DNA from: a virus
Taxonomy: Duplodnaviria > Heunggongvirae > Uroviricota > Caudoviricetes
Direction: 5' to 3' (one strand)
Virus record (IMG/VR): IMGVR_UViG_2585427732_000018
Length of the DNA stretch: 11,410 nt
In this document: positions 1-10,647 of the stretch, in pieces
How the letters are laid out: each line of letters starts with the position of its first letter
Numbering within the stretch: the stretch's first letter is position 1
Translations under genes and position numbers: made by a program
The notes under the pieces: generated by a model
Told to the model about the DNA's origin: nothing
Databases searched by the model: none
What the model saw: only the letters and a program-made list of their open reading frames with translations

Positions 1-1242
1 ATGGCGAGAAAAACACACCCATTAACCACAGTGCAGATCAAAGCAGCCAGACCAGCGCAAAAGGAGTACACCCTGCAGGACGGCGGAGGGCTTTTTCTCC
101 TGGTCAAACCGTCTGGATCAAAACTCTGGAGATTTTCCTACTACCGACCATCGGACAAAAAAAGAATATTGCTGAGTTTTGGATCGCTTGAAGATGTTTC
201 CCTGGCTGATGCCAGAAAACGCCGTAGCGAGTACAGGACGTTAATCAGTGCCGGAACTGACCCGCAGGACCACGAGAGGCAAAAAAGAGAGACAGAGGCC
301 CGAAGACAAGGGAACACGTTCGAAAATGTGGCGGCGGCATGGTACCAGGTGAAAATCAGCCAGAATCTGGCCCCCAACACGATTAAAGACATCTGGCGTT
401 CGCTGGATAAATATGTATTCCCGTTCATCGGCAACACGCCAATAGATACCCTCACCGCCCGAAGGTTCGTTGAAGTGCTTACACCCATCAAGGAGCGCGG
501 CAACCTGGAAACACTCAAGCGGGTTTTACAGCGCGTTAATGAGGTAATGGATTACGCCGCCAACAGTGGGCTGATTGATGCCAATCCGGCTATGAATGTG
601 CGTAAGGCGTTTCCCTCACCTGTAAAAAAACATATGCCAACAATCCGCCCCGAACAGCTGCCGGAGCTTATGCAGGCTTTATCAGTATCGGCAACAGAAC
701 GGCAGACCAGATTACTGATTGAATGGCAGTTACTGACCGTAACCCGTCCCGCCGAAGCGTCATCAACGCGGTGGGATGAAATCAACCTGGACGCGAAGCA
801 ATGGACGATACCTGCCGGACGCATGAAGATGCGCAGGGATCACGTTATCCCGCTTTCCGGTCAGGCTATGGCGGTGCTGGAGGCCATGAAACCAATCAGC
901 CACCACCGCAATTACGTTTTCCCAAGTCTGAAAGACCCACAGCAGCCGATGAACAGCCAGACAGCTAACGCAGCATTGCGGCGTATGGGATTCGCTGGCG
1001 TGCTGGTGTCTCATGGATTACGCGCCATATTCAGCACAGCAGCGAACGAGGAAGGATTCGAGCCGGACGTAATAGAGGCGGCACTTGCCCACGTCGACAC
1101 CAACGAAGTTAGACGGGCATACAACCGGAGCAACTACATAGAAAAACGCATCGTGCTGATGCGCTGGTGGGGCGAATTTGTCGAGGCTGCGGCGACGGGC
1201 GTAACCCTCGCCAGTGGTAAAAGGGGTATCCGAGCCGTGTAG
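1..1242 (+). CDS. int: Tyrosine site-specific integrase, P4-like family
   Basis: 413 aa ORF. N-terminus (KEYTLQDGGGLFLLVKPSGSKLWRFSYY...VSLADARKRR) is typical of P4-type integrases; C-terminal catalytic motifs HGLRAIF and YNRSNY (putative catalytic Tyr) are present. Confidence 0.93.
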   Translation: MARKTHPLTTVQIKAARPAQKEYTLQDGGGLFLLVKPSGSKLWRFSYYRPSDKKRILLSFGSLEDVSLADARKRRSEYRTLISAGTDPQDHERQKRETEARRQGNTFENVAAAWYQVKISQNLAPNTIKDIWRSLDKYVFPFIGNTPIDTLTARRFVEVLTPIKERGNLETLKRVLQRVNEVMDYAANSGLIDANPAMNVRKAFPSPVKKHMPTIRPEQLPELMQALSVSATERQTRLLIEWQLLTVTRPAEASSTRWDEINLDAKQWTIPAGRMKMRRDHVIPLSGQAMAVLEAMKPISHHRNYVFPSLKDPQQPMNSQTANAALRRMGFAGVLVSHGLRAIFSTAANEEGFEPDVIEAALAHVDTNEVRRAYNRSNYIEKRIVLMRWWGEFVEAAATGVTLASGKRGIRAV

Positions 1243-3711: not shown

Positions 3712-4011
3712 ATGAAAAATAAAAATTCTGGCGTTACTGCCAGCGGCCCCGCTCGTCCTGAATTTATGAACGGCGATATTTACCGCGATAAATATGGCGG
3801 CATGGTAACGATTAAAGGCGTGGCAGAACGGCGCATCACCTACCGTCGTGAAGGCTACGAATATGATTGCGTGATGCCTGTTTATCAGTTTCGGCGTGAT
3901 TTTTCTCTGGTACAGGCAGCGCCCCGCAGTAAACCAACCAGCAGGGAGAAAGCACGCGCCAATATTCAGGAAATAAAAAAGATGCTTAACGTATTCAGGG
4001 GTAAAAAATGA
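3712..4011 (+). CDS. Hypothetical protein (99 aa), possibly DUF4222-like
   Basis: GGAGAA SD upstream; motif GDIYRDKYGGMVTIKGV...YRREGYEYDCVMPV resembles small proteins found beside primases in P4-like islands (family assignment from memory, unverified). Confidence 0.55.
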   Translation: MKNKNSGVTASGPARPEFMNGDIYRDKYGGMVTIKGVAERRITYRREGYEYDCVMPVYQFRRDFSLVQAAPRSKPTSREKARANIQEIKKMLNVFRGKK

Positions 4012-5756
4012 AACTGGCACCGAACGTAAAAAAACAGCCACGCGGAATAAAACACAAAGACACAGAGGTAATTATTTTCGCGGGTAGTGATGCCTGGTCG
4101 CACGCGAAACAATGGCAGGAGCAGGATGGCCCCGCATCCGGCGATAATGTGCCGCCTGTGTGGCTTGGGCCAAATCAGCTTGCCGAACTTGATGCACTGA
4201 AAATTGTTCCGGATGGGAAAAAGCGCGTAAGGCTGTACCAGGCCGGAGAACTGGATTTGGTGGAGACCAAAAAGATTGGTCAGAAGCTGGCGGCGGCAGA
4301 TATTCAGGACGCAAATTTTTACCCCGAAGGAATGCACGTCCAGAAGTGTGAAAACTGGCGGCGCTATCTGAATGCTGAGCGTGAAAATATTGCCGCAGGG
4401 CTTACCATGCCGGAGCAGAAAAATACGCAACTGGCACAAATGGCAGACAGTGAGCGCGCGCAGCTGCTTGCCGAGCGCTTTGATGGCGTTTGTGTGCATC
4501 CTGAAAGTGAAATCGTTCACGTATGGCGCGGCGGGGTATGGTGTCCGGTCAGCACAATGGAGCTGAGCCGCGAAATGGTGGCGATCTATTCAGAGCACAG
4601 GGCCACTTTCAGCAAGCGCGTAATCAATAACGCCGTGGAAGCGTTAAAAGTTATTGCCGAACCAATGGGCGAGCCGTCCGGCTATTTGCTGCCGTTCGCC
4701 AATGGTGCGCTTGACCTGAAAACGGGGGAATTTTCCCCGCACACGCCGGAGAACTGGATCACCACGCACAACGGCATTGAGTACACGCCACCAGCACCCG
4801 GGGAGAACATCCGCGATAACGCGCCAAACTTTCATAAATGGCTTGAGCACGCAGCCGGAAAAGACCCGAGCAAGATGATGCGTATATGTGCCGCGATGTA
4901 CATGATTATGGCGAACCGGTACGACTGGCAGATGTTTATTGAGGCCACCGGAGACGGCGGGAGCGGTAAAAGTACATTCACACATATAGCCAGCCTTCTG
5001 GCAGGGAAACAGAACACGGTAAGCGCTGAAATGACATCGCTTGATGATGCTGGTGGACGTGCGCAGGTTGTCGGGAGTCGTCTTATCGTCCTGGCTGACC
5101 AGCCGAAATATACAGGCGAAGGAACGGGCATCAAGAAAATCACAGGCGGCGACCCCGTGGAAGTTAACCCGAAATATGAAAAGCGTTTCACGGCGGTAAT
5201 CAGGGCGGTGGTGCTGGCGACCAACAACAACCCGATGATATTCACCGAACGGGCCGGAGGTGTGGCACGTCGTCGCGTGATTTTCCGTTTCGACAATATC
5301 GTCAGTGAGGCCGAAAAAGACAGGGAGCTACCGGAAAAGATCGCGGCTGAAATCCCTGTCATTATCCGCCGATTGCTGGCGAACTTTACCGACCCTGAGA
5401 AGGCACGGGCTTTACTACTGGAACAGCGTGACGGTGATGAAGCTCTGGCAATAAAGCAACAGACGGATCCGGTTATTGAGTTTTGCCAGTTCCTGAATTT
5501 TCTGGAGGAAGCACGCGGCCTGATGATGGGCGGCGGTGGCGATTCAGTGAAGTACACGACCAGAAACAGCCTTTACCGCGTCTATCTGGCGTTTATGGCG
5601 TACGCAGGCAGGAGCAAACCGCTAAACGTAAATGACTTTGGCAAGGCTATGAAGCCAGCCGCGAAAGTTTACGGACATGAATATATTACGCGGAAAGTTA
5701 AGGGAGTAACGCAGACTAACGCAATAACAACAGACGAGTGCGACGCGTTTTTATAA
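4008..5756 (+). CDS. Primase / replication initiator, P4-alpha-type (D5-like P-loop NTPase)
   Basis: 582 aa; Walker A GDGGSGKST and a downstream hydrophobic stretch LIVLADQ; start overlaps the upstream stop (ATGA); iteron origin immediately downstream, as is typical of satellite pri-rep genes. Confidence 0.88.
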   Translation: MKLAPNVKKQPRGIKHKDTEVIIFAGSDAWSHAKQWQEQDGPASGDNVPPVWLGPNQLAELDALKIVPDGKKRVRLYQAGELDLVETKKIGQKLAAADIQDANFYPEGMHVQKCENWRRYLNAERENIAAGLTMPEQKNTQLAQMADSERAQLLAERFDGVCVHPESEIVHVWRGGVWCPVSTMELSREMVAIYSEHRATFSKRVINNAVEALKVIAEPMGEPSGYLLPFANGALDLKTGEFSPHTPENWITTHNGIEYTPPAPGENIRDNAPNFHKWLEHAAGKDPSKMMRICAAMYMIMANRYDWQMFIEATGDGGSGKSTFTHIASLLAGKQNTVSAEMTSLDDAGGRAQVVGSRLIVLADQPKYTGEGTGIKKITGGDPVEVNPKYEKRFTAVIRAVVLATNNNPMIFTERAGGVARRRVIFRFDNIVSEAEKDRELPEKIAAEIPVIIRRLLANFTDPEKARALLLEQRDGDEALAIKQQTDPVIEFCQFLNFLEEARGLMMGGGGDSVKYTTRNSLYRVYLAFMAYAGRSKPLNVNDFGKAMKPAAKVYGHEYITRKVKGVTQTNAITTDECDAFL

Positions 5757-6044: not shown

Positions 6045-6323
6045 ATGCACACTTCAGGGAAATTTAATAAATCACTCAAAAAACGCAGAGACAGAACAGA
6101 ACCGAAATATCGCGCGTTAGACATGACAGAGCACGCTTTAAAGGTGGCAATCAGAACGATAGACCGCCACGCGGGGGAAGGATACGCGAAAGCACATCCC
6201 GAACTGATAAGCGCATTCATGACCACGACGGCGGCAAACTTTGCCACGCTGACAGAACGGGAGATTGCCGAAGCGGAACAGGTAACAACCATCAACGTTA
6301 AAACCGGAGAGGTGGAATCATGA
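6045..6323 (+). CDS. Hypothetical protein (92 aa)
   Basis: GAGGGGG upstream at about 11 nt; stop overlaps the ssb start (ATGA), suggesting translational coupling. No family recognised. Confidence 0.5.
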   Translation: MHTSGKFNKSLKKRRDRTEPKYRALDMTEHALKVAIRTIDRHAGEGYAKAHPELISAFMTTTAANFATLTEREIAEAEQVTTINVKTGEVES

Positions 6324-6742
6324 CAGCACAGATAGCCGCTTACGGGCGGCTGGTGGACGACCCGCAGGTAAAACAGACCAGCAAGGGCACACCGATGACG
6401 CTGGCGCGTATGGCGGTCCCCCTTCCGTGCAGCCAGGCAGATGACGGAACGGCGACGATGTGGTTATCCGTCCTGGCATTTGGCAGACAGGCCGAAGCAC
6501 TGGAAAGGCACCGCAAGGGTGAACTCCTGAGCGTGGCGGGTAACATGCAGATCAGCCAGTGGACTGGGCAGAACGGAGAAACGCGGCAGGGCTGGCAGGT
6601 TATCGCAGACAGTGTAATCAGTGCGCGAACGGCGCGACTGGGCGGCAAAAAAGGTCAACAGGGCCAGGCTACTGACGCGCTGAACAGGGCAAAACAACAG
6701 GCGGGGAATGATGATCCGTACGGGGATAACATACCGTTTTAA
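6320..6742 (+). CDS. ssb: Single-stranded DNA-binding protein (SSB-like OB fold)
   Basis: 140 aa; GRLVDDPQV...W..V.AFG..AE.....RKG aligns with the E. coli SSB OB fold; Gly/Gln-rich linker; C-terminal DDPYGDNIPF resembles the SSB acidic tip (DDDIPF). Confidence 0.75.
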   Translation: MTAQIAAYGRLVDDPQVKQTSKGTPMTLARMAVPLPCSQADDGTATMWLSVLAFGRQAEALERHRKGELLSVAGNMQISQWTGQNGETRQGWQVIADSVISARTARLGGKKGQQGQATDALNRAKQQAGNDDPYGDNIPF

Positions 6743-6757
6743 GCGACGAGTGACAGA

Positions 6758-6781
6758 AGCCGGAGCAATCCGGCTTTTTTA
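6758..6781 (+). terminator. Rho-independent terminator after ssb
   Basis: AGCCGGA-GCAA-TCCGGCT hairpin plus TTTTTT. Confidence 0.7.
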
Positions 6782-6835
6782 CGGGTCCTCCTGGCGGGGT
6801 GGGCCTGAACACGGGGCGGGAGGCGCGGAAAAAAG
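6782..6835 (+). other. Degenerate cos-like relic (third copy of the terminator-cos module)
   Basis: CGGGTCCTCCTGG...ACGGGGCGGGAGGCGCGG parallels 9223-9275 (CGGGTCCTTCCTGG...ACGGGGCGGCGACCTCGCGG) but the 12-nt cosN core is disrupted. Confidence 0.5.
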
Positions 6836-6954
6836 CGCATTTTTGTGATTTTATCGTCATCATCATCATGAGCGTAATTTATTGTTTTTAATTGTTTTGA
6901 TGCAAAAAAGATGATGGTTGTGGTTAATTTTCGTTCGACATCTTTGCAGGCAGA

Positions 6955-7157: not shown

Positions 7158-7364
7158 ATGGCTGAAGAGAAAAAAGGCGGTGTTTCGGTGTACATAAGCC
7201 CCGAAATCGTGGAGGTGCTCAAGCAGCGCCACAAAAAAAACTATGAGGCTGGCGTGGCGGCTGGACTGGATCCGCTGATGACGCCGGAGCCGTCGATAGG
7301 TTCACTTGTACGCTCTTATTTACTTGCGGCGCTTGGGATGCATAAAAATTATGGGGGTGAATAA
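7158..7364 (+). CDS. Small RHH-like protein (68 aa), first gene of the capsid operon
   Basis: GVSVYISPEIVEVLKQ (beta strand plus helix) and SIGSLVRSYLLAALG (helix) suggest a ribbon-helix-helix fold; stop overlaps the capsid gene start by 1 nt. Confidence 0.5.
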   Translation: MAEEKKGGVSVYISPEIVEVLKQRHKKNYEAGVAAGLDPLMTPEPSIGSLVRSYLLAALGMHKNYGGE

Positions 7365-8419
7365 TGGCAGGCAAAGCAACGGCACTTAACACTAACCAGC
7401 TTTTCATGTACCTGAATCGCGGGGATATTGCGGATTTTAAATTCAGCCCTCTGTTTACCACGCTGTTTTTCCCGAACGTGGCGACATTCAGCACGCAAAA
7501 CATCATGCTGGATACCCTGGACATTGAAGAAGTCACCATGTCGGCGTTTTGTTCGCCTATGGTGGGTAGCCAGGTTCAGCGCGATAAAGGGTACGAAACC
7601 AGCACAATCAAACCTGGCTACATGAAGCCAAAGCACGAAATCGATCCAACGAAAACCATCATGCGCATGGCTGGAGAAGATCCGGCACAGCTTAACGACC
7701 CTACCTATCGCCGTATGCGCCTGATTACTGGCAACATGCGCCGCCAGATAAACGCCATTAAGGCACGCGTGGAATGGCTGGCGGTGAATGCGGTAACGAC
7801 CGGAAAAAACATCATTGAGGGCGAAGGCATAGAACGCTATGAAATCGACTGGAAAATACCGGAAAACTGCATCATAGAGCAGGCCAAGGGTAAAAAATGG
7901 TCCGAGCAGGATAAAGACATGCACGACCCAATCTATGACATCGAGCTTTATGCTGATCAGGCTGGTTGCCCCGCAAACGTCATGATTATGGGCGCTGAGG
8001 TATGGCGCACATTACGCAGCTTTAAAAAATTCCGTGAGCTGTACGATCTTTCCCGTGGTTCAGAATCCGCCGCCGAACTGGCCTGTAAAAACCTGGGCGA
8101 AGTGGTGAGCTTTAAAGGCTATCTTGGTGATCTGGCCCTTATCGTCTATTCCGGCAAATACACTGACAGCGATGGTACCGAAAAATATTTCCTTGAGCCT
8201 GATTTGCTGGTCCTGGGTAACACCAACAATAAAGGGCTGGTGGCCTATGGTGCGATAATGGATCAGGAAGCGGTAAGAACGGGCGCAACACAAAACATGT
8301 TTTACCCGAAAAACTGGATTGAGGACGGCGATCCGGCGATTGAGTACGTGCAGACACACAGTGCACCGCAGCCGGTACCGGCAGATATTCGCAAATTTGT
8401 TACCGTCAAAATTGGTTAA
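7364..8419 (+). CDS. Major capsid protein, phage lambda gpE-like
   Basis: 351 aa; long colinear matches to lambda gpE as I recall it: DFKFSPLF..LFF; SP.V...V.R.......IKPGYMKPKHEIDP; EDP..L.DP.YRR.R; WSEQDK..HDP..DIE.YA; RGSES....A.K.LGE.VSFKG..GD.A.IVYSG.Y; YPKNW...GDPA.E. GGGGGTGA SD upstream. Confidence 0.9.
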   Translation: MAGKATALNTNQLFMYLNRGDIADFKFSPLFTTLFFPNVATFSTQNIMLDTLDIEEVTMSAFCSPMVGSQVQRDKGYETSTIKPGYMKPKHEIDPTKTIMRMAGEDPAQLNDPTYRRMRLITGNMRRQINAIKARVEWLAVNAVTTGKNIIEGEGIERYEIDWKIPENCIIEQAKGKKWSEQDKDMHDPIYDIELYADQAGCPANVMIMGAEVWRTLRSFKKFRELYDLSRGSESAAELACKNLGEVVSFKGYLGDLALIVYSGKYTDSDGTEKYFLEPDLLVLGNTNNKGLVAYGAIMDQEAVRTGATQNMFYPKNWIEDGDPAIEYVQTHSAPQPVPADIRKFVTVKIG

Positions 8420-8431
8420 CGGGGGAATTCT

Positions 8432-8767
8432 ATGGACACTCCATACATTGAGTTATTTGCAGGCAGTCAGCAGGTATCCACGACGTTGGTACATTTTGCC
8501 GCTGATGCTGGCGTTATTCAGGAATTTACCCCGCTGATGCTGGCAGACAATGGCGAGTTTAAGCCGTGGGATGGTCAGGAATCTGGCAAGGCTGTTTATC
8601 TGACCTCGTACCCTGTGGACACGTCAAAGCAGAAATCAGCACAGTGTTACAAGACGGGGATATTCAATATTGCCGCCGTTAACTGGCCTGAGAGCGTCGA
8701 CACCGATGCGAAAAAATGCGCCGCCTTTGCGGGTTCCGGCGTATCCGTTCAGCCGCTGGCCCGATAA
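8432..8767 (+). CDS. Head decoration protein, phage lambda gpD-like
   Basis: 111 aa, about the size of gpD; conserved TPLMLAD...WDG, YKTG.F, WPES.D.DAKK.AAFAGSG motifs; GGGGGAA SD upstream. Confidence 0.8.
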   Translation: MDTPYIELFAGSQQVSTTLVHFAADAGVIQEFTPLMLADNGEFKPWDGQESGKAVYLTSYPVDTSKQKSAQCYKTGIFNIAAVNWPESVDTDAKKCAAFAGSGVSVQPLAR

Positions 8768-8779
8768 GCAGGGGGAACG

Positions 8780-9193
8780 ATGGCAACGAATGAAAGCATC
8801 ATGACGCTACCGCTGGCGAGTAAATTTAAAGCCGAAGCGCGGGCAATGGCTGACAGAGGTTTATCAACCTACGAGGCCGTATATCAACTCAACAAACTGG
8901 AAGAGCAGGACAAGCCGCGCGCTGATGCGATTATGGCGCTTCATGAGCATAAAGACTATCAGCCGCTGTTGCGTGCAATGGCAAACGTGCCTTGTATCGA
9001 TGTTGATACGGCTAAAAACATCCTGAACATGACCATAGAGCAGGAACGCCCGAAGGTTGCACCAGAGCTTACCGCAGCCTTTGAAAACTTTATGGACATG
9101 CACAGCCCACAAACCGTATCAGCTGGCATGGCATACGATGGCAGAAACCCAGGCGATGACGGCGACATCGATCGCATACTGAAAACCATCTGA
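8780..9193 (+). CDS. Hypothetical protein (137 aa), predicted helical, in the capsid operon
   Basis: Same GGGGGAA SD as the two upstream genes; followed by a terminator. Occupies the position that lambda gpFI holds after gpE, but I see no sequence similarity to gpFI. Confidence 0.6.
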   Translation: MATNESIMTLPLASKFKAEARAMADRGLSTYEAVYQLNKLEEQDKPRADAIMALHEHKDYQPLLRAMANVPCIDVDTAKNILNMTIEQERPKVAPELTAAFENFMDMHSPQTVSAGMAYDGRNPGDDGDIDRILKTI

Positions 9194-9198
9194 GACAA

Positions 9199-9221
9199 GG
9201 CCGGAGAAATCCGGCTTTTTT
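9199..9221 (+). terminator. Rho-independent terminator after the capsid operon
   Basis: GCCGGA-GAAA-TCCGGC hairpin plus TTTTTT; near-identical to the terminator at 6758-6781. Confidence 0.7.
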
Positions 9222-9222
9222 G

Positions 9223-9290
9223 CGGGTCCTTCCTGGAATTATGGCCCGTTACGGGGCGGCGACCTCGCGGTTTTTCGCTATTTATGAGCT
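9223..9290 (+). other. cos site (forward copy): cosN cohesive-end sequence GGGCGGCGACCT at 9254-9265 with lambda-like flanks
   Basis: CCCGTTACG-GGGCGGCGACCT-CGCGGTTTTTCGCTATTTATGA matches the phage lambda cos junction as I recall it; similarity to lambda stops about 30 bp to the right of cosN. Confidence 0.8.
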
Positions 9291-9398
9291 TTTTCAGGGG
9301 GGTGGTGGTGGTTTTGTTGTTTGCTCTATCTTTATGAATGAAAAGGGAAAGATGCAAACAATACACCAACCTGAAGCAGTAATTAAGTTGGTGTATTA

Positions 9399-9941
9399 AT
9401 GAAATCGCACCTGATGAACAAAAAAAACATGGCGAAAAGCTGCCGTGTAAGTGCGACAGCGTTCGACAAGTGGGGAGTGACTCCCGTTGAACGTAAAGGC
9501 CGTGAGGCGTTTTACGATGTTGCCAGCGTGATAGACAATAGGGTTAACAATGCAATTAGCCAGCTTACAAACGACAAAGGCGATATTGATGATGATGAAC
9601 TCTTACGAGTCAGGATCAGATTACTGACAGCACAGGCGGAGGCGCAGGAACTTAAAAACGAGCGCGATCGCGGTGACGTGATTGATACTGAGTTTTGCCT
9701 GTACGCGCTTTCAAAGCTGGCGAGTCAGATTTCATCAATCATGGACAGCCTCCCGCTTACTATGCAAAGGAGCTTCCCACAGATTACCCCCGCCATGCTG
9801 GATAGGCTTAAAAGGGAAGTGGTTAAAGCCTGTAATGCCAGTGCCAGAGTTGCCGACAACCTCCCACAGATACTGGCTGATTACTTGAAAGAAACAACCG
9901 GAAACGTACCGGAAAAGTTGCTACAGAAGAAAGGCGAGTAA
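9399..9941 (+). CDS. Terminase small subunit homologue (lambda Nu1-like); candidate packaging-redirection (Rpp-type) protein
   Basis: 180 aa; C-terminal two thirds (LTAQAEAQELKNERDRGDVIDTEFCLYALSKLASQISSIMDSLPLTMQRSFP) closely parallel lambda Nu1; N-terminal wHTH region is much more diverged. Alternative starts at 9414 and 9429; no strong SD for any. Confidence 0.8.
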   Translation: MKSHLMNKKNMAKSCRVSATAFDKWGVTPVERKGREAFYDVASVIDNRVNNAISQLTNDKGDIDDDELLRVRIRLLTAQAEAQELKNERDRGDVIDTEFCLYALSKLASQISSIMDSLPLTMQRSFPQITPAMLDRLKREVVKACNASARVADNLPQILADYLKETTGNVPEKLLQKKGE

Positions 9942-9964
9942 CAGACGCGCAATTATTGAACAAA

Positions 9965-10163
9965 ACTGAGAAACGACATGAAAGCGTCATAAATCGCCAT
10001 TTTAGATGATTACCGTGTCGTTTCTTTTTATTGTGTATCTATTTAAAAACAAATAGTTATGTTCGAGAAGTACCGACATGCTTTTTCCAGAAAAATTTTC
10101 ATAAACAGATAAAAACCGCGAGGTCGCCGCCCCGTAACGGGCCATAATTCCAGGAAGGACCCG
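9965..10163 (-). other. cos site (inverted copy) with lambda-like cosB architecture; cosN core at 10121-10132 (minus strand)
   Basis: 10111-10163 is the exact reverse complement of 9223-9275 (53 bp). Read on the minus strand, the flank continues with ATCTGTTTATGAAAATTTTTCTGG, an R3-like TCGGTACTTCTCGAACATAACT, an AT-rich TTGTTTTTAAATAGATAC and an inverted repeat AGAAACGACA/TGTCGTTTCT (9969-9978 / 10016-10025), resembling lambda R3-I1-R2-R1. Confidence 0.75.
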
Positions 10164-10196
10164 ACGACACCAGACTATCAGAGCGATGGGGGCACA

Positions 10197-10478
10197 ATGA
10201 CAGAAGCCGAAATACTGGGATTAATCCGCCGTGCTGGTGGAATCAGCCAGCAGACTGACGAACAGGCCACGCAGCCGGACAGCGTGACAGCCGAAAATTA
10301 TGCGCGTGTTGTTGCTGAGGTGATGCGCCGTGATGGTATCCAGCTTAATGATGTGGATATGCGCAACATACGGATCCGCGTTCTTGAAATGCTGGCCTAC
10401 CGTCGCCGCGTGCAGACGTACAGGGAAAAAGCAAAAATTACGTACCACTGGAAGAAGCCGGAGCGGTTACGGCGGTAA
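10197..10478 (+). CDS. Hypothetical protein (93 aa)
   Basis: GGGGG SD upstream; lies between the inverted cos and the right-end repeat array. No family recognised. Confidence 0.5.
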   Translation: MTEAEILGLIRRAGGISQQTDEQATQPDSVTAENYARVVAEVMRRDGIQLNDVDMRNIRIRVLEMLAYRRRVQTYREKAKITYHWKKPERLRR

Positions 10479-10647
10479 CTGGTTGATATTTTCGAAATTC
10501 GCCAGCGGCGAACATCGGGGAAACCAGCCTAACCCGTTGATATTTTCGGGAACCTCAAATTGAGGAGGTCGGAAACATAACCCGTCATATTCTGGATGCT
10601 GATAATTACCACGCAGCCCATTAAGGCCTAACCCGTTGATTCTTCCC
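10477..10647 (+). repeat. Four phased direct repeats (TAACCCGTTGATATTTTCG-like) at about 50 bp spacing
   Basis: Copies at about 10477, 10529, 10577 and 10627; also palindromes TTCGCC-AGC-GGCGAA (10495-10509) and GCGCAA-AA-TTGCGC (10700-10713). Confidence 0.6.

Follow-up and report, generated by a model that had tools for sequence, protein, structure and literature searches.

An 11,410-nucleotide stretch of DNA filed under the Caudoviricetes (IMG/VR record IMGVR_UViG_2585427732_000018; hereafter the window) carries a phage-inducible chromosomal island (PICI) in which the gene for the small terminase subunit, terS, is enclosed by two cohesive-end (cos) sites facing in opposite directions. A third predicted cos site, of a different class, lies further upstream. 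We propose that this island maintains several packaging entry sites for different terminases, that the inverted layout prevents loss of the terS cassette, and that inversion of the cassette is a by-product; we give this interpretation a probability of about 60%.

The arms that bound the cassette are a perfect inverted repeat. Over all 53 nt, positions 9223-9275 match the reverse complement of 10111-10163 perfectly, and with mismatches allowed the repeat reaches inward to 72 nt at 92% identity (9223-9294 and 10092-10163); outward there is no similarity. About 8e-25 perfect 53-nt inverted pairs are expected by chance in 11.4 kb, and the runner-up inverted repeat in the window spans 35 nt at 71% identity. 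The lambda cosN, the cohesive-end sequence GGGCGGCGACCT, has two exact copies in the window, at 9254-9265 (plus strand) and 10121-10132 (minus strand). Both arms additionally hold the cosQ core GGGTCCT (9224-9230, plus strand; 10156-10162, minus strand), set off from cosN by a 23-nt spacer, so each copy is a cosQ-cosN unit and more than a bare cosN. The upstream site (cos1) and the downstream site (cos2) share the anatomy of a lambda-type cos: a 12-nt cosN, cosQ ~30 nt upstream and an I2-like segment downstream. A first-pass annotation of the sequence had described the perfect repeat with a cosN in each copy, and two oppositely oriented cos sites flanking a terS-like gene; this anatomy is confirmed, and cosQ is now added to both arms.

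9223..9275, plus strand: left arm of the 53-bp inverted repeat, containing cosQ, the 23-nt spacer, cosN and 10 nt of the I2-like segment
10111..10163, minus strand: right arm, containing cosN (10132-10121) and cosQ (10162-10156) of cos2
9200..9221, plus strand: terminator-like hairpin GCCGGAGAAATCCGGC followed by TTTTTT, as read from the sequence, directly before cosQ of cos1

A consensus terminator scanner applied to 8700-10600 did not call this hairpin. Together with the cosQ motif of cos1, it is repeated at 6759-6789.

The sequences behind the two cosN copies are of different kinds. On the minus strand, cos2 can be aligned to the cos regions of real phages across cosQ, cosN, R3, I1, R2 and R1.

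9945..10120, minus strand: cosB2, with an I2-like segment (10120-10099), R3 GCATGTCGGTACTTCT (10081-10066), an AT-rich I1-like segment (10061-10036), R2 (10027-10013) and R1 TCATGTCGTTTCTCA (9981-9967)

Counted from cosN, R3 lies at +52..67, R2 at +106..120 and R1 at +152..166, offsets that we take to be close to the lambda spacing. The R3, I1 and opposed R2 and R1 of a lambda-type cosB are all present, with the IHF region recognized by its sequence. cosB2 is 73% identical to that of phage PhiR5_1 (83% over the first 150 nt of the cos region), 73% to that of phage 4, a CFT073 helper prophage with a 21-type Nu1, and 66% to that of lambda. Since the cosBs of these three phages are 66-72% identical among themselves, the island copy falls within the same range as the phage-phage comparisons. 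The phage-21-type R3 reads CATGTCGG..., and cosB2 is nearer to this type than to lambda. Its first 66 nt, the R3-I1 part, show 86-94% identity in the prophage-like matches sampled, and cosB2 has matches at 80-95% identity in >1,000 Escherichia coli genomes. The chromosome of E. coli Nissle 1917 (NZ_CP022686.1) contains a second match to the 166-nt cosB2 query, which probably marks the cos of a lambdoid prophage resident there, a candidate helper.

cos1, by comparison, is lambda-like for only ~20 nt past its arm (CGCTATTTATGA), through the I2-like CGCGGTTTTTCGCTATTTATGA. The remainder, 9288-9398, produced zero nucleotide matches in 50,697 phage records, and terS likewise is unmatched in phages at the DNA level.

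9266..9398, plus strand: cosB1, with an I2-like segment (9266-9287) and an element at the R3 position, GGTGGTGGTGGTTTTGTTG (9301-9319, +48 from cosN)
9360-9370 and 9387-9397, plus strand: inverted pair of cosB1, AATACACCAAC and GTTGGTGTATT

The stretch 9295-9400 includes GGTGGTGGTTTTGTTG and the pair formed by ACACCAAC and GTTGGTG. Among four terS-type islands, GGTGGTGGTGGTTTTGTTG at the lambda R3 position and ACACCAAC (+110) are conserved, and GTTGGTG (+134), the inverted partner of ACACCAAC, is variable. cos1 thus has elements at positions analogous to lambda R3, R2 and R1, with different sequences. Aligning both copies to lambda and helper cos regions, as the first-pass annotation had advised, bears out its view that a lambda-like cosB survives in the downstream copy alone: cos2 matches over the whole cosB, with the refinement that it is nearer the phage-21 type, and cos1 matches only to the I2-like segment. 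What that annotation had called a novel leader is without phage matches beyond the first ~20 nt and is conserved, apart from its last element, among the terS islands compared.

cosB1 sits directly upstream of terS, a layout like that of cos and Nu1 in lambda, and this association extends to relatives. A scan of one genome per species returned no relatives of the island TerS, and a scan of IMG/VR gave 80 loci encoding it at 81-100% identity, 71 of them with enough downstream sequence to read the far side of the gene. cos1 was present as a cosQ-cosN unit upstream of terS in 80/80 loci, and an element of the cosB1 kind stood behind it in 10/10 loci read. In a subset (L053, L055-L063, L065, L074, L084 and L089), cos1 has a variant cosN (GGGCGGAAGGCG, GGGCGTCAGGCG, GGGCGGCAGACG or GGGCGGCTGACG) next to an unchanged kind of island cosB. 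Judged from these sequences, the variants imply helpers whose large subunits differ in cutting specificity.

The protein encoded between the two sites is a full-length homologue of the lambda small subunit.

9399..9941, plus strand: island TerS, Nu1 homologue, 180 aa; a second possible start, at 9414, lines up with that of Nu1

It scores 83 bits against Pfam Phage_Nu1 (cut-off 30; match spanning 33-148) and E 3e-53 against PHROG 57 (terminase small subunit), and is 35% identical to lambda Nu1 (residues 6-166 against Nu1 3-180) and 41% identical to PhiR5_1 Nu1, full length. The alignment includes the C-terminal segment that binds gpA, the large terminase subunit (TerL), in Nu1. The N-terminus also aligns with Nu1 (NKK..W..KG) but is divergent and falls outside the Pfam match, and the linker is 13 residues shorter. 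Searched by sequence against solved structures, this protein gave zero matches. Membership of the Rpp proteins (RppA, RppB and RppC), which are 139-154 aa long and probably without a TerL-binding tail, was ruled out: BLASTP against RppA gave an E value of 1.4, and the Nu1 C-terminal region is present.

A close relative indicates how the parts co-vary. Locus L007 encodes a TerS 95% identical to that of the window and has the same cosB1, and its helper-type cosB carries other R elements (GTCAGATCC) and resembles yet another lambdoid cos. cosB2 therefore varies independently of the island TerS. A cosB1 that stays constant with TerS beside a varying cosB2 is the pattern expected if the island TerS reads cosB1 and the helper TerS reads cosB2, and we infer this division of labour from the comparison.

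The third site adds another specificity.

6759..6950, plus strand: cos3, with the hairpin (6759-6780), cosQ GGGTCCT (6783-6789), a cosN-like GGGCGGGAGGCG (6814-6825) and ~125 nt of cosB-like sequence

cos3 matches the region between Rz and terS in Stx phages such as Stx2_112808 and VT1-Sakai at 94-96% identity. Stx2_112808, the one examined, pairs a DUF1441-type small subunit with a gpA-type large subunit, and by this resemblance cos3 is a third cos site belonging to another terminase class than cos1 and cos2. It is present in the Nissle island and L007 and absent from EcCICFT073, L006 and L090; the variant cos2 found in loci L076-L089 belongs to its class. A site for another terminase class fits a collection of helper-specific entry sites, as does the variant cosN found at the cos2 position in some relatives.

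These elements suggest how packaging could proceed. At cos1, the island TerS would bind cosB1 and recruit a helper TerL of the gpA type to cut cosN, leading to rightward packaging. An unmodified helper terminase of the 21/lambda type would enter at cos2, the second site, and package leftward; cos3 would offer entry to another lambdoid terminase class. On a replicating concatemer, packaging in either direction would yield whole island units. Termination in lambda requires cosQ-to-cosN polarity, with cosQ ahead of cosN. Given this requirement, an inverted site could not end a run begun at the other cos, and would thereby avoid products lacking the 0.87-kb cassette. A direct pair of cos sites would instead give genomes without the 867-bp cassette or with it duplicated. 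The conserved arms would also be recombination substrates, with cassette exchange (terS for rppA) and flipping as side effects. The assignment of each protein to its site in the window island is our own reading of the motifs.

Published genetics of the sister island EcCICFT073 are consistent with dual entry sites. There, cos1 is required for transfer by lambda and phi80, and cos2 is functional when cloned on a plasmid; deleting cos2 raises transfer, some transfer persists when cos1 is deleted, and none is left once both sites are removed (PMC6092414, PMC6739421). RppA redirects the helper TerS to the cosB of cos1 in that island (PMC6092414, PMC6739421). These demonstrations of cos-site function and of cos1 use by a redirected terminase come from the literature on the sister island, and we extend them to the window by analogy.

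The distribution of cos2 among relatives is uneven. Downstream of terS, an inverted cos2 carrying the lambda cosN is found in 30 loci. In 10 others the inverted cos at this position is of the GGGCGGGAGCAT type (eight tallied, plus L076 and L081), and in 1 it has another cosN. In another 10 loci (L051, L052, L054, L066-L070, L072 and L075) a remnant is left: the terS stop runs directly into cosQ, the spacer and ~9 nt of cosN, and the entire helper-type cosB is deleted. In 22, cos2 is wholly absent and p93, the gene to its right, directly abuts terS. Related islands that lack the inverted copy without an effect on transfer had been named in advance as evidence against a role for it; the first half of that statement holds, as such relatives exist among these 22 and 10 loci.

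Several points weigh against our proposal. With 22 of 71 loci lacking cos2 and 10 more retaining a remnant, the site is dispensable for the family. The increase in EcCICFT073 transfer by lambda and phi80 on deletion of cos2 makes the site a cost with those helpers. No helper with exactly this cosB was identified, the best phage match being 83% over 150 nt. The IHE3034 island (marked RS04635-RS04640::cat), which encodes the same TerS as the Nissle island, was classed as a TerS-encoding PICI with very poor, low-frequency transfer (PMC6092414). Finally, the rationale that we infer for the inverted orientation is drawn from textbook lambda polarity.

Some of the same observations suit an alternative in which cos2 is a relic or neutral passenger, the scar of a recombination event that imported the terS or rpp cassette, and contributes nothing to transfer. 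The losses and remnants, and the gain in transfer on deletion, would follow naturally, and the cassette interior is more conserved than its flanks, pointing to a recent spread in which cos2 could persist because it is recent or harmless. We nevertheless consider this reading unlikely. cosQ, cosN and all three R elements are intact in cos2 at about the lambda spacing; several cosB and cosN flavours occupy the position, at least two of which resemble real phage cos regions (those of L088 and EcCICFT073 were not traced to any phage); and cos2 is kept in both terS-type and rppA-type islands with diverged backbones. That EcCICFT073 still transfers without cos1, and fails to do so only when both sites are gone, also argues against a passenger.

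cos2 could alternatively act as a decoy, a helper-type cosB on a multicopy, replicating island that titrates the helper TerS or terminase and thereby adds to interference with the helper. cosB2 is indeed of helper type, and PICIs of the EcCICFT073 family do interfere with helper packaging (PMC6739421), but in the sister island this interference maps to Rpp alone. Moreover, a cos bound by terminase and equipped with intact cosN and cosQ would be cut and packaged, which amounts to dual entry; we hold a pure decoy to be highly improbable.

The cassette as a whole appears to be a mobile unit. Between the window and EcCICFT073, both flanks are 94-95% identical and the interiors are unrelated except for ~30 nt beside each cosN, so that the terS and rppA units, each with its own cosBs, substitute for one another precisely at the arms. 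Other pairs combine near-identical interiors with diverged flanks:

CFT073 and WP4-S17-ESBL-08: interior 100%, flanks 95.9% and 99.1%
P15-385 and 2014C-4587: interior 99.9%, flanks 94.1% and 99.1%
Window and Nissle: interior 100%, flanks 96.3% and 95.5%

In these pairs (L005/L090, L008/L007 and window/L001), the interiors between the cosN sites are 99.9-100% identical and the flanks differ by 1-6%. Sequence comparisons of this kind suggest that cassettes move between island backbones by recent horizontal exchange.

Cassettes are also found flipped. We searched complete genomes with a synthetic query for the inverted left junction, matched end to end. The terS cassette was inverted in 5 genomes and in normal orientation in 484 (~1% inverted); the five are PM4-5 and LZHX12 (98%) and 2014C-4587, JNE181771 and 2013C-4282 (85%). 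In PM4-5 and 2014C-4587, the whole arm-to-arm segment is reversed between collinear flanks, placing terS on the strand opposite to the capsid genes. The cassette closest to that of 2014C-4587 is the one in P15-385, which is in normal orientation, encodes a TerS of the same accession and matches it at 99.9% across the interior. The rppA cassette was inverted in 24 genomes and normal in 64, and the 24 may be one clone; WP4-S17-ESBL-08 and CFT073 share a 727-bp interior (100% identity) at the phoQ locus, flipped in WP4-S17-ESBL-08. Inversions are clean from arm to arm, with the encoded proteins intact and identical. We ruled out assembly artefacts, as the arms are only 53-77 bp long and the junctions are clean in several independent complete genomes. 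The combinations of cassette and backbone indicate at least three independent inversion events. The recombination-prone, invertible terS cassette raised as a possibility in the first-pass annotation is thus supported by inverted isomers in complete E. coli genomes, of both terS and rppA types.

Both orientations in nature, in at least three independent combinations, would also be expected of a programmed switch, in which inversion would act as phase variation to set the direction of packaging or the expression of terS/rpp. The remaining evidence leaves this barely credible. No recombinase other than the island integrase, ~8 kb away, was found among the window open reading frames (ORFs) and annotations, so no invertase adjoins the repeat. 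A promoter and terminator scan of 8700-10600 found no promoter-like site in the cassette that inversion could connect or disconnect, and its sole terminator-like calls there were the cosN regions. Both cos sites remain complete after inversion, so no functional difference is predicted. Inverted terS-type islands are scarce, none of the 80 IMG/VR loci has an inverted cassette, and Nissle 1917 derivatives, ATCC 25922 and CFT073 each show a single orientation among the matches listed. One orientation in re-sequenced strains, together with 0/80 inverted loci, speaks for rare recombination and not a fast switch.

The arms themselves record how exchange took place. In L006 and L007, the left and right types of cosQ-cosN spacer stay put while the cosB sides swap, which places the exchange within ~30-40 bp around cosN, the sole long block of identity. 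In some lineages, the window and WP4-S17-ESBL-08 among them, both arms have a spacer of the right-arm type, and this accounts for the perfect 53-bp repeat of the window. Conversion of the left arm to the right-arm spacer type looks like gene conversion. We also considered that the helper terminase itself flips or swaps the cassette, acting like a restriction enzyme that shuffles packaging modules. Cutting of both inverted cosN copies would release the 0.87-kb interior with the same 12-nt 5' overhang, GGGCGGCGACCT, at both ends; the outer ends would carry the complement, permitting re-annealing and ligation in either orientation or between co-replicating islands. Exchange intervals of ~30-40 bp centred on cosN are compatible with this scheme and equally with RecA- or Red-type recombination, and the converted left arm points to ordinary recombination, leaving terminase-driven flipping rather improbable. 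Cassette inversion is more likely to be a by-product of general recombination than a switch, as our multiple-entry proposal holds.

The rest of the window is a typical island backbone, as judged from ORFs and Pfam: an integrase, a D5-type primase, a single-stranded DNA-binding protein (SSB), gpE-like and gpD-like proteins, and the Nu1-like TerS.

1-1242: tyrosine integrase with Phage_integrase, Phage_int_M and Arm-DNA-bind_3 domains
1738-1944: 68-aa product with a weak Phage_AlpA match (17.6 bits, cut-off 21), labelled a helix-turn-helix regulator in RefSeq
Among the window ORFs: a DUF4222 protein
4008-5756: primase with D5_N, DUF5906 and Pox_D5 matches in Pfam
6320-6742: SSB (Pfam)
7364-8419: gpE-like major capsid protein
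8432-8767: gpD-like decoration protein
8780..9193, plus strand: p137, the left flank gene, 137 aa (PHROG 1999, E 2.7e-65)
10197..10478, plus strand: p93, the right flank gene, 93 aa (PHROG 1561), kept beside cos2

p137 is kept beside cos1 in terS-type and rppA-type islands alike. It has a weaker match to the C-terminal part of the head maturation protease family PHROG 53 (positions 495-567 of 583, E 3.8e-9) and may be an Nu3-like scaffold segment. Alongside the gpE-like and gpD-like genes, it hints that the island may remodel the capsid.

Across 9100-10300, the window matches E. coli Nissle 1917 and ATCC 25922 at 99.7% identity, and the cos2/terS segment is 99.7% identical in IHE3034. The window TerS matches WP_000835278.1, which Nissle 1917 and IHE3034 have in common, and the neighbouring genes of IHE3034 also match the window; the Nissle island adjoins tRNA-Pro and yejM. 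Gene order follows EcCICFT073 (int, pri, SSB, gpE-like, gpD-like, p137, cassette, p93), and related IMG/VR contigs cut as islands are mostly ~9-14 kb. With a left-end integrase and specific site, its own primase and replication module, genes that run mostly in one direction, and the size and gene order of a Gram-negative cos-type PICI, the window is, on this sequence evidence, a catalogued island of the EcCIIHE3034/Nissle type and a sister of EcCICFT073. Identity with EcCICFT073 was ruled out: in place of a protein with the published RppA sequence, the window encodes a Nu1 homologue.

The two-cos layout is already known for the EcCICFT073 family, of which the window is a second version. The words 'inverted' and 'orientation' are absent from the main text of PMC6092414 and PMC6739421, and the published Fig. 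S1A prints EcCICFT073 cos2 already reverse-complemented. Beyond these 2018 and 2019 papers, our search, which covered literature outside subscription journals, found no description of the inverted orientation, the inversion or the TerS-type cassette, and cos2 goes unmentioned in the 2022 review by Murialdo and Feiss. Within that scope, we did not find reported the inverted-cassette geometry, its natural inverted isomers, the match of cos2 to lambdoid cosBs, the exact replacement of terS by rppA, or the third cos. The comparison introduces no new kind of system and suggests a testable answer to the open question of Fillol-Salom et al. It suggests that the sites are specificity modules, one for an island-redirected terminase, one for the helper's native enzyme and here one for a third phage class, and that rpp or terS plus cosB forms a cos-bounded cassette that is exchanged between islands and found in both orientations. 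These points bear on which helpers a satellite can use, and on engineered PICI or cosmid delivery vehicles derived from EcCICFT073 or carried in Nissle 1917.

EcCICFT073 itself shares with the window its backbone and gene order, a cos1 upstream of the packaging-specificity gene and an opposite-strand cos2 with the same cosQ-cosN arm: cos1 lies on the plus strand at 8900, directly upstream of rppA, and cos2 on the minus strand at 9639, downstream of it, as a 77-nt inverted repeat of 82% identity. It differs in encoding a 144-aa Rpp between the sites in place of a 180-aa full-length Nu1-type TerS; Rpp is probably without a TerL-binding tail, on the argument of Murialdo and Feiss. Its cos2 is also more divergent from phage cosBs (54-61%), whereas that of the window aligns well, and both EcCICFT073 cosBs have been called 'completely divergent' (PMC6092414, PMC6739421). 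EcCICFT073 cos2 (L005 9480-9640, minus strand) contains three copies of CATGTCCGG / CCGGACATG, the first at the R3 position. The papers describe this region as being without phage R sequences (PMC6092414, PMC6739421); to us, the CATGTCCGG / CCGGACATG elements look like R elements of another specificity. EcCIIHE3034 has the same TerS accession and neighbours, and the parts of PMC6092414 available to us do not describe its cos sites.

More distant systems share single features. Segments bounded by inverted repeats and found in both orientations are familiar from Gin/Hin/Cin and the fim switch; unlike those, the island has no dedicated invertase, its arms are cos sites and no expression change is predicted. 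In pac-type Staphylococcus aureus pathogenicity islands (SaPIs), a satellite TerS likewise redirects the helper TerL to a satellite site, but the hosts are Gram-positive and the TerS is of the headful type. The cos-SaPIs (SaPIbov5, and SaPIbov4, said to have two putative cos sites) are also Gram-positive, whereas the island combines a cos-type Nu1 with a helper-type cos. Closest in their parts are lambda, phage 21 and other lambdoid phages: cosQ, the identical 12-nt cosN and the I2-like segment occur in both island sites, and R3, I1, R2 and R1 recur in cos2, whereas cosB1 departs from the lambda-type cosB in its R sequence (GGTGGTGG / GTTGGTG). These phages place cos before their Nu1 homologue, as the island does with cos1. 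They have one cos each, whereas the island has two inverted sites 867 bp apart and a third of another class.

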